From Escherichia coli (GTDB lineage Bacteria > Pseudomonadota > Gammaproteobacteria > Enterobacterales > Enterobacteriaceae), in assembly GCF_030013205.1 (NCBI RefSeq), contig NZ_CP122648.1: DNA of 64,000 bases; one strand, 5' to 3'. A program made the translations under genes and the position numbers. Position 1 is the first letter of the stretch. Each line of letters opens with the position of its first letter. Of this stretch, positions 58,111 to 60,237 are shown in pieces. The notes below the pieces were generated by a model. The model worked only from the letters and a program-made list of their open reading frames with translations. It was not told where the DNA came from and did no database searches.

Positions 58111-60237
58111 TTAGTCCTCGTTTACAACCTTTTGCTGGGCGGCTTTTTTGGCCTGAACGCGGGCAATAGCCGCGGCAACTGCCGCTTTGCGCGGATCAAC
58201 CTGTTCTTCTGGTTCTGCGTTAGCCTGTTGCTGTTCCAGCTTGCGCGCTTTGGCACGGGCAATAGCGGCTTCGACGGCAGCTTTGCGCGGATCGACCTGT
58301 TGTTCTGGCTCGGCATTAGCCTGTTGCTGTTCCAGCTTACGTGCTTTGGCACGGGCAATCGCGGCTTCGACGGCGGCTTTGCGCGGGTCAACCTCTTCTT
58401 CTGGCTCCGCATTAGCCTGTTGCTGCTCCAGCTTGCGCGCTTTGGCGCGGGCGATAGCGGCTTCGACGGCGGCTTTGCGCGGGTCAACCTGTTCTTCTGG
58501 CTCCGCATTGGCCTGTTGCTGTTCCAGCTTGCGTGCTTTGGCGCGGGCAATAGCCGCTTCAACGGCAGTTTTACGTGGATCAGCAACGGTTGCAGCGTCG
58601 TTAGTTTGCTGCAGTTCTGCCTGTTTCGCTCTGGCTTGCGCTTTACGGGCTTCCCGTGCTGCAATAATTGCACTGTTATCCGGGCGTTCGCCCTCTTTAA
58701 TCACAATAGGCTGTGTAGCCTGGGCCTGTTTCTCTTTCACCCGCGCCAGAGCGGCAGCAATCGCATCTTTATCTTTGGCTGCAGGTTGAACGGCTGCGCT
58801 CTTATGTCGTTCAAGGCGAGCCGCTTTTTCGCGCTCCAGACGAGCCTGGCGCGCTTCGAAACGCGCTTTGGCTTCTGCGGCGCGCTTTTCTTCCTGACGA
58901 ATAGCCGCAATTTCAGCTTTTTCCTGACGGAAATATTGCACCAGGGGAATATTGCTCGGGCAAACCCACGCGCAAGCCCCACATTCAATGCAGTCGGCAA
59001 TGTTATGCGTGGTGGCTTTATCGTGTTGCTGACCTTTGCTGAACCAGTACAACTGTTGCGGCAAAAGATCCGCAGGGCAGGCGTCAGCACAGGCGCTACA
59101 CCGGATGCAGCTTTGTTCTTCCTGTGATTCGCCAAGTTCATTGGCAGAGGGAGCTAACAGACAGTTGGTAATCTTTACGACCGGGACATCCAGCCATGGC
59201 AAGGTAAAGCCCATTAACGGGCCGCCCATAATCACCATTTGATCGGTAGAGGGGCAGAATCCGGCATCATTCAATAAATGACGCACTGGCGTACCCAGCC
59301 GTGCCCAGACGTTGCCCGGGCGTGCGATTGCTTCGCCAGTCAGGGTCACGACACGCTCGGTAATCGGTTCGCCATCAATAACGGCACGTTTCACTGCATA
59401 AGCAGTGCCGACGTTTTGCATTAATACGCCGATATCGGATGAACGCCCGCCATGTGGAACCTGCTTCCCGGTCAGAATGTAGGTTAATTGTTTAGCGCCG
59501 CCAGAAGGATATTTGGTTGGAATCACCCGCAGAGAAATATCGTGAGAGTCCGCCAGCACCGCGCGCAGCATGGAAATCGCCTGCGGTTTGTTATCTTCAA
59601 TGCCGATAAGAATTTCGCGTGGCTGCAGAATATGCGCAAGAATGCGAATACCCTCTACGACCTGAGCCGCGCAATCCTGCATCAAACGGTCATCGGCGGT
59701 AATGTACGGCTCGCACTCAGCAGCGTTGATAATCAACGTTTCAATCTTATCTCCGCCGCCCAGCAATTTAACGCCTGTCGGGAATCCCGCACCACCCAGA
59801 CCGGCAACACCAAACTGATGAATACGCTCGATTAACTCTTCGCGACTGCGAGAGCGATAATCGTCCCAGCCGTCGCGCGGGATCCAGCAGTCTTCGCCAT
59901 CGGCATCAATAATCACGCTTAATTCAGCTAAAGCTGAAGGATGAGCCGTAGAGTGGGGCGCAATAGCCGTAACGGTACCCGAGGTGGGCGCGTGAACTGG
60001 CAGCATTTTGCCGCGTCCACGGGTAAGCGGCTGGCCGCGCAGTACTTTATCGCCGACGCTAACGCACAACTCACCTTCAGCGCCAATATGTTGTTTCAGT
60101 GGTATGACAAAACGCTGCGCCAGTGGTACCTGGCGCAGGGGCGTACCGTTGGACTGGGTTTTCATCTCCGGTGGATGGATGCCGCCGTTGAAATCCCAGA
60201 TTTTATTTTTTCTGAATGCAGAGAATAACTTAAGCAT
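58111..60237 (-). CDS. rsxC: Rnf-type complex subunit RsxC (4Fe-4S, NADH-binding) with repetitive C-terminal tail
   Basis: 708 aa; two CxxCxxCxxxCP motifs; C-terminal 32-aa tandem repeats. Confidence 0.93.
58114..58581 (-). repeat. about 4.9 tandem copies of a 96-bp (32-codon) repeat inside rsxC
   Basis: Protein repeats [32 protein letters not shown] x4 plus a partial copy; 96-bp periodicity counted directly in the DNA. Confidence 0.9.

Follow-up and report, generated by a model that had tools for sequence, protein, structure and literature searches.

A natural four-unit allele of the coding minisatellite ms11 in rsxC of Escherichia coli

The 3′ end of rsxC in Escherichia coli contig NZ_CP122648.1 (assembly GCF_030013205.1) carries an in-frame array of 96-bp tandem units. 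Very probably, the best explanation is that this array is the coding minisatellite ms11, present here as a natural four-unit allele and differing in length by whole units between strains. The analysis covered a stretch of 64,000 nucleotides of this contig, referred to below as the window. A first-pass annotation of this DNA had already observed the repeat and interpreted it correctly; the locus is known as a named marker and the allele is common. Since the array is an established typing marker and its four-unit version a common natural allele, we consider the finding an ordinary one.

The array and the protein that carries it

The coding sequence of rsxC occupies positions 58111–60237 on the minus strand (708 aa plus stop) and is the only long open reading frame (ORF) there with a sensible product. 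It matches the rsxC annotated in E. coli CFSAN018748 at 100% identity and lies between rsxB and rsxD in the arrangement rsxABCDGE-nth; going by the annotation of matching genomes, the flanking ORFs on the same strand correspond to rsxB, rsxD, rsxG, rsxE and nth. Within the Rnf-type Rsx complex, RsxC provides the cytoplasmic NADH/FMN/Fe-S subunit, and a role of Rsx in keeping SoxR reduced was reportedly described by Koo et al. in 2003. The catalytic core of the protein (aa 14–450; 58888–60198, minus strand) comprises a barrel-sandwich domain, an FMN/NADH-binding domain, an SLBB domain and two 4Fe-4S motifs. All Pfam matches fall within aa 14–452 and represent RnfC_N, Complex1_51K, SLBB and 4Fe-4S domains (PF13375, E 3.5e-32; PF01512, E 1.4e-47, of the Nuo51-type FMN-binding kind; PF10531; and Fer4 families). 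Given this domain content and the operon context, we take the window protein to be the RsxC/RnfC subunit of an Rnf-type ion-translocating oxidoreductase. The solved RnfC chains 8ahx_C (E 4e-121), 7zc6_C and 9eri_C align only to aa 14/15–443/498, and beyond about aa 498 RsxC has neither a Pfam domain nor coverage by a PDB homologue. Because the Pfam domains and the solved homologues stop at aa 450–498, the array is placed outside the catalytic core, in the C-terminal tail. The part of the tail that precedes the array (aa 445–552; 58582–58905, minus strand) is rich in Ala, Lys, Arg and Glu, is not repeated, has no Pfam domain and is predicted to be helical in a low-confidence AF2 model.

At the 3′ end of rsxC, Tandem Repeats Finder detects one array, at 58160–58582, with a period of 96, 4.4 copies, 88% matches, no indels and a score of 629. 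Mapped in the frame of rsxC, the array resolves into four 32-aa (96-bp) units at 58198–58581 followed by a degenerate terminal unit of 28 aa, all on the minus strand. Unit 1 lies at 58486–58581 (aa 553–584), unit 2 at 58390–58485 (aa 585–616, ending in EPEEEV), unit 3 at 58294–58389 (aa 617–648, ending in EPEQQV) and unit 4 at 58198–58293 (aa 649–680, ending in EPEEQV), while the terminal unit occupies 58114–58197 (aa 681–708) and runs directly into the stop codon at 58111–58113. Full units follow the pattern DPRK(T/A), 24 further residues and then (E/Q)(Q/E)V. Between any two of the four full units, 82–87 of the 96 nucleotides and 30–31 of the 32 residues are identical, as opposed to just 53 of 87 nucleotides and 16–17 of 28 residues between the terminal unit and the full ones. 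Both Tandem Repeats Finder and the unit map bear out the in-frame 96-bp VNTR proposed in the first-pass annotation for the RsxC C-terminus, and its extent of 58114–58581 is exact in the register of the gene. The description as 4.9 near-identical repeats holds for the four full units but not for the fifth, which is degenerate.

Because of the array, both strands also carry long false ORFs that gene callers ought to disregard. Two of them are antisense on the plus strand, as had been anticipated from the sequence, namely one of 373 aa (58006–59127), held open by the periodic repeat, and one of 200 aa (58187–58789); a third, of 183 aa (58122–58673), is out of frame on the minus strand. All three have periodic translations, lie wholly within rsxC or overlap it, and are by-products of the repeat.

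Apart from this array, tandem repetition in the window is confined to two adjacent tRNA-Val(GAC) genes with an 81-bp period (20663–20820, minus strand). An antisense Rfam match to HPnc0260 (20538–20701, plus strand) overlaps one of these genes and is probably driven by the tRNA. Elsewhere in the window, matches at the Rfam gathering level were obtained for the sRNAs rydB (2484–2544, plus strand, 81.6 bits) and STnc550 (29413–29803, plus strand, 396 bits).

Constraint on the unit peptide and the possible role of the tail

Differences between the four window units are almost all synonymous, which indicates that the unit peptide is under constraint. The units are separated by 8–11 synonymous versus 1–2 non-synonymous codon differences, and the NG86 estimates (mean dN 0.021, mean dS 0.63, dN/dS about 0.03) are noisy for 32 codons but clear in direction. 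Between the window and K-12, dS over the rest of rsxC is 0.077. On this comparison of codons, the units are old copies with a conserved peptide rather than a young slippage tract that has only just expanded.

The first 18 residues of the unit do not change from genus to genus, and the second half varies in both sequence and length (units of 28–35 aa). Each unit holds six basic and six acidic residues, with all of the basic ones among the first 18. In the AF2 model each unit forms a helix of ~22 residues, with linkers of ~10 residues and a periodic confidence to match; as this whole-protein model was built from a shallow alignment of 21 sequences (mean pLDDT 48, pTM 0.32), only its secondary-structure periodicity was used. 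The model tentatively suggests a tail built of successive basic helices with acidic, Pro-containing (Gln/Glu/Pro) linkers between them. Older, degenerate copies of the unit were also sought in aa 445–552, but this idea found no support: of 500 shuffles that preserve composition, 27 and 150 reach the best local alignments (aa 526–546 and aa 490–509, respectively). The literature found on the C-terminal extension of RsxC/RnfC assigns no function to the tail.

Copy number might nonetheless not be neutral: the number of helix-linker modules could tune Rsx, for instance its reach toward or affinity for a partner such as SoxR, which would make the array an adaptive length-variable locus. We regard this as unlikely, although several observations fit it. 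Purifying selection on the unit peptide is strong, the head motif is invariant across genera, the arrays begin at residue 553 in many Enterobacterales, and rsxC is listed among the loci altered during experimental evolution, through a non-frameshift deletion under olaquindox and also under cefotaxime. Against this, the literature found links no phenotype to unit number, and the changes are in frame and so bring no on/off switching. The coexistence of E. coli alleles carrying anything from 2 to 11 full units, together with 0-copy alleles in Erwinia, argues for tolerance. In the cefotaxime study, an antibiotic-cycling evolution experiment, the "parallel" Salmonella rsxC missense variants occur at 5–8% frequency, at codons 611, 637 and 676, all of them inside the Salmonella repeat (PMC9778841, Supplementary file 3), a pattern that would be expected from short reads mis-mapped between units and not from real mutations. 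The further claim that gain and loss of units adaptively adjust responses to redox stress or antibiotics, through SoxR re-reduction or partner docking and not through neutral drift, strikes us as improbable.

Short-read variant calling inside the array is unreliable, and low-frequency "parallel mutations" that evolution experiments report for rsxC may stem from reads mapped to the wrong unit. Strong conservation of the unit peptide alongside a freely varying copy number poses a small question about Rnf-type complexes in enterobacteria.

Length change, frequency and assembly of the four-unit allele

Comparison of rsxC across E. coli genomes, as the first-pass annotation had proposed, gave reference lengths that vary by whole units. 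Three full units (rsxC of 2031 nt, 676 aa) are found in OV2 and in O104:H4 2011C-3493; four (2127 nt, 708 aa) in the window, CFSAN018748 and O104:H4 2009EL-2071; five in K-12 J53, HH45 and PEC1021 (2223 nt, 740 aa) and in Nissle 1917 (2229 nt, 742 aa); six in O157:H7 (2319 nt, 772 aa); and seven in ST131 (2421 nt, 806 aa). According to the unit maps, an extra Gln lengthens some units of the 742- and 806-aa alleles to 33 aa, and the terminal unit is the same in all E. coli alleles examined. The shortest E. coli RsxC in the protein database has 645 aa (2 full units) and the longest 937 aa (11 full units). RsxC of E. fergusonii, Salmonella, Citrobacter and Klebsiella likewise carries repeats with the same head motif from aa 553 onward, in units of 28–35 aa. 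The length of 740 aa given for K-12 RsxC in the first-pass annotation was right, and so was the reading of the 708-aa window protein as one unit shorter, the two genes differing by exactly 96 nt.

Two pairs of closely related strains document the length change itself. K-12 J53 and the laboratory strain OV2, which we take to be a K-12 derivative, differ in rsxC by one 192-bp in-register indel with 0 other mismatches, and their RsxB and RsxD protein accessions are identical. OV2 lacks units 2–3 of K-12, with a breakpoint that can be placed anywhere in a 53-nt identical tract common to units 1 and 3. Since the three-unit allele of OV2 also occurs at 100% identity in several natural isolates (e.g., ECCTRSRTH03 and TUM9754), we assign the OV2 event neither a direction nor a date. 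In the O104:H4 pair, both members of which are closed genomes, the rsxC of 2011C-3493 and that of 2009EL-2071 differ by one 96-bp indel (676 vs. 708 aa), again with 0 other mismatches, and this comparison is a clean example of recent gain or loss of a unit between close relatives. Such clean in-register indels of 96 and 192 bp agree with the expansion and contraction by recombination or slippage suggested earlier. Unequal recombination or replication slippage between misaligned units would be expected to leave traces of this kind, and we infer the mechanism itself from them. Misalignment of units during recombination or replication would generate indels across identical stretches, which were from ~14 to 53 nt long in the two cases studied. 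A unit length that is a multiple of three would always preserve the frame and the terminal unit, and the tail, lying outside the catalytic core, would tolerate about 2 to 11 full units.

With a length difference of exactly 96 nt, and with clean single- or double-unit indels known between close relatives, the window allele could be read as a recent single-unit deletion from a K-12-type five-unit allele. We find this rather improbable. After removal of the best-fitting 96 bp, 60 mismatches to K-12 rsxC are left, 36 of them over the 1656 nt that precede the array (2.2%) and 24 within the ~470-nt array (5%), and the correspondence of window and K-12 units is mosaic and non-positional, with 3–7 differences to the nearest K-12 unit. 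Because of these remaining substitutions and the mosaic correspondence, the window allele is not simply K-12 minus one unit. It also belongs to a different lineage and is invariant there (see below), and the comparison does not tell loss from gain.

The array of the window with its flanks was colinear in one place in 1129 of 5424 complete E. coli genomes by BLAST (1120 with a shorter query), and exactly the span of the window was present in 12 of 60 evenly spaced records from two samples. Queries with three, five and six units were colinear in 159, 3984 and 3022 genomes, respectively, with the five-unit span in 25 of 40 evenly spaced rows. Taken as a cumulative series from three to six units, the counts of 159, 1129, 3984 and 3022 are not monotonic, the six-unit query finding fewer genomes than the five-unit one, and their use as a full allele distribution was rejected. 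We treat them as rough, because they are not strictly cumulative and the matches of a shorter allele do not in every case join up in a single place. The allele frequencies are therefore estimates from BLAST colinearity counts and evenly spaced samples rather than a full census: about 3% of genomes would have three or fewer units, about 20% four, roughly 55–63% five, and the remainder six or more. The four-unit, 708-aa allele is thus natural and common, with a share of about one fifth among complete E. coli genomes, whereas the K-12-type five-unit class is the commonest.

Within its own lineage the window allele does not vary among the genomes compared. A 22-kb flank (window positions 36000–58000) is 100% identical to several complete porcine ETEC/O139:H1 genomes (ETEC4079, ETEC4067, P15-25 and others), from which we place the window in a swine-associated lineage. 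Fourteen complete swine ETEC/O139:H1 genomes are 100% identical to the window over 1001 bp of array and flanks and four more are 99.9% identical, so the allele appears to be invariant there. Full units differ from one another at 9–14 of 96 positions and the longest exact repeat within the ms11 amplicon is 34 nt, which means that an assembler needs no more than k > 34, or a long read, to resolve the array uniquely. It is consequently very unlikely that the array is an assembly artefact in which a five-unit, K-12-like array collapsed by one unit, a possibility raised in the first-pass annotation. In favour of such a collapse, ~470 bp of 96-bp tandem repeats exceeds short-read length, and in one complete genome (CFSAN004176) the rsxC/rsxD junction is damaged and annotated as pseudogenes, perhaps through faulty assembly at this locus. 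Against it, the 14 genomes were assembled independently and the unit count recurs in about 20% of complete genomes.

Two further observations on individual genomes were made in passing. In CFSAN004176, rsxC is annotated as a pseudogene without its C-terminus and the adjacent rsxD as frameshifted, through either a real deletion across the end of the array or an assembly error. In strains HCP5S3_I2 and LCP30S3_I5, the 1001-bp array query matches in two pieces over a span of 1217 bp and the annotation carries both the names rsxD and "rnfD", which suggests a longer or rearranged allele.

The ms11 marker and related systems

The panel for Shigella/E. coli MLVA that includes ms11 is attributed, reportedly, to Gorge et al. 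(J Clin Microbiol 46:1026, in 2008). Its primer pair for this locus, GAAACAGGCCCAGGCTACAC and CTGGCGCTGGTTATGGGTAT, is listed under the entry "ms11 (rsxC)" (PMC11773471, Table 1) and is also given elsewhere (PMC8215070, Table 1). Each of these 20-mers has one exact match in the window and 0 matches in shuffles, the forward primer at 58713–58732 on the minus strand and the reverse primer, inside rsxD, at 58063–58082 on the plus strand. They bracket the array and define an in-silico amplicon of 670 bp (58063–58732). The published tandem repeat size of ms11 is 96 bp (PMC8215070). As unit size, gene, primers and polymorphism all agree, the array can be equated, by sequence, with the E. coli/Shigella MLVA locus ms11. 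From (amplicon − 286)/96, where the 286-bp flank is implied by the sizes in PMC8215070, we infer that the window has allele 4 and K-12 allele 5. Allele 4 falls below the range of 4.5–7 given for ms11 in that study (PMC8215070), yet it is common among complete genomes. The locus was reused from the panel as "ms11 (rsxC)" (Camelena et al., 2019), and use of an MLVA panel containing ms11 continues today. The practical weight of the present finding is small, the array being a long-used typing marker for which the window simply has allele 4.

Among known systems, phase-variable contingency loci resemble ms11 in that repeats mediate a change of length via recombination or slippage. They differ in being simple-sequence repeats in or upstream of genes, whereas the units of ms11 are 96 or 99 nt long and have diverged at 9–14% of positions. 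Assignment of the array to this class was rejected, every allele examined keeping the frame and the terminal unit; since a unit of 96 (or 99) nt is a multiple of three and changes are in frame, there is no on/off switching at the array.

Other coding repeats used for typing offer further parallels. E. coli MLVA panels assign CVN004 to tolA and CVN001 to ftsK (PMC11773471, Table 1). Like ms11, these are length-variable coding tandem repeats in essential or housekeeping genes. They presumably lie in low-complexity linker regions of their proteins, and we take their units to be much shorter than those of ms11, in genes that differ from rsxC. Another close system is RsxC of Erwinia amylovora, in which Ham and Park (2023; PMC10587187) put forward a 40-aa tandem repeat, present in 0–5 copies, as a marker for strain typing. 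It shares with the window protein a repeat that starts at aa 553, the same 18-residue head motif and a variable copy number, and it differs in its 40-aa unit (as against 32 aa), in the Ala/Pro/Gln-rich second half of that unit and in having 0-copy alleles.
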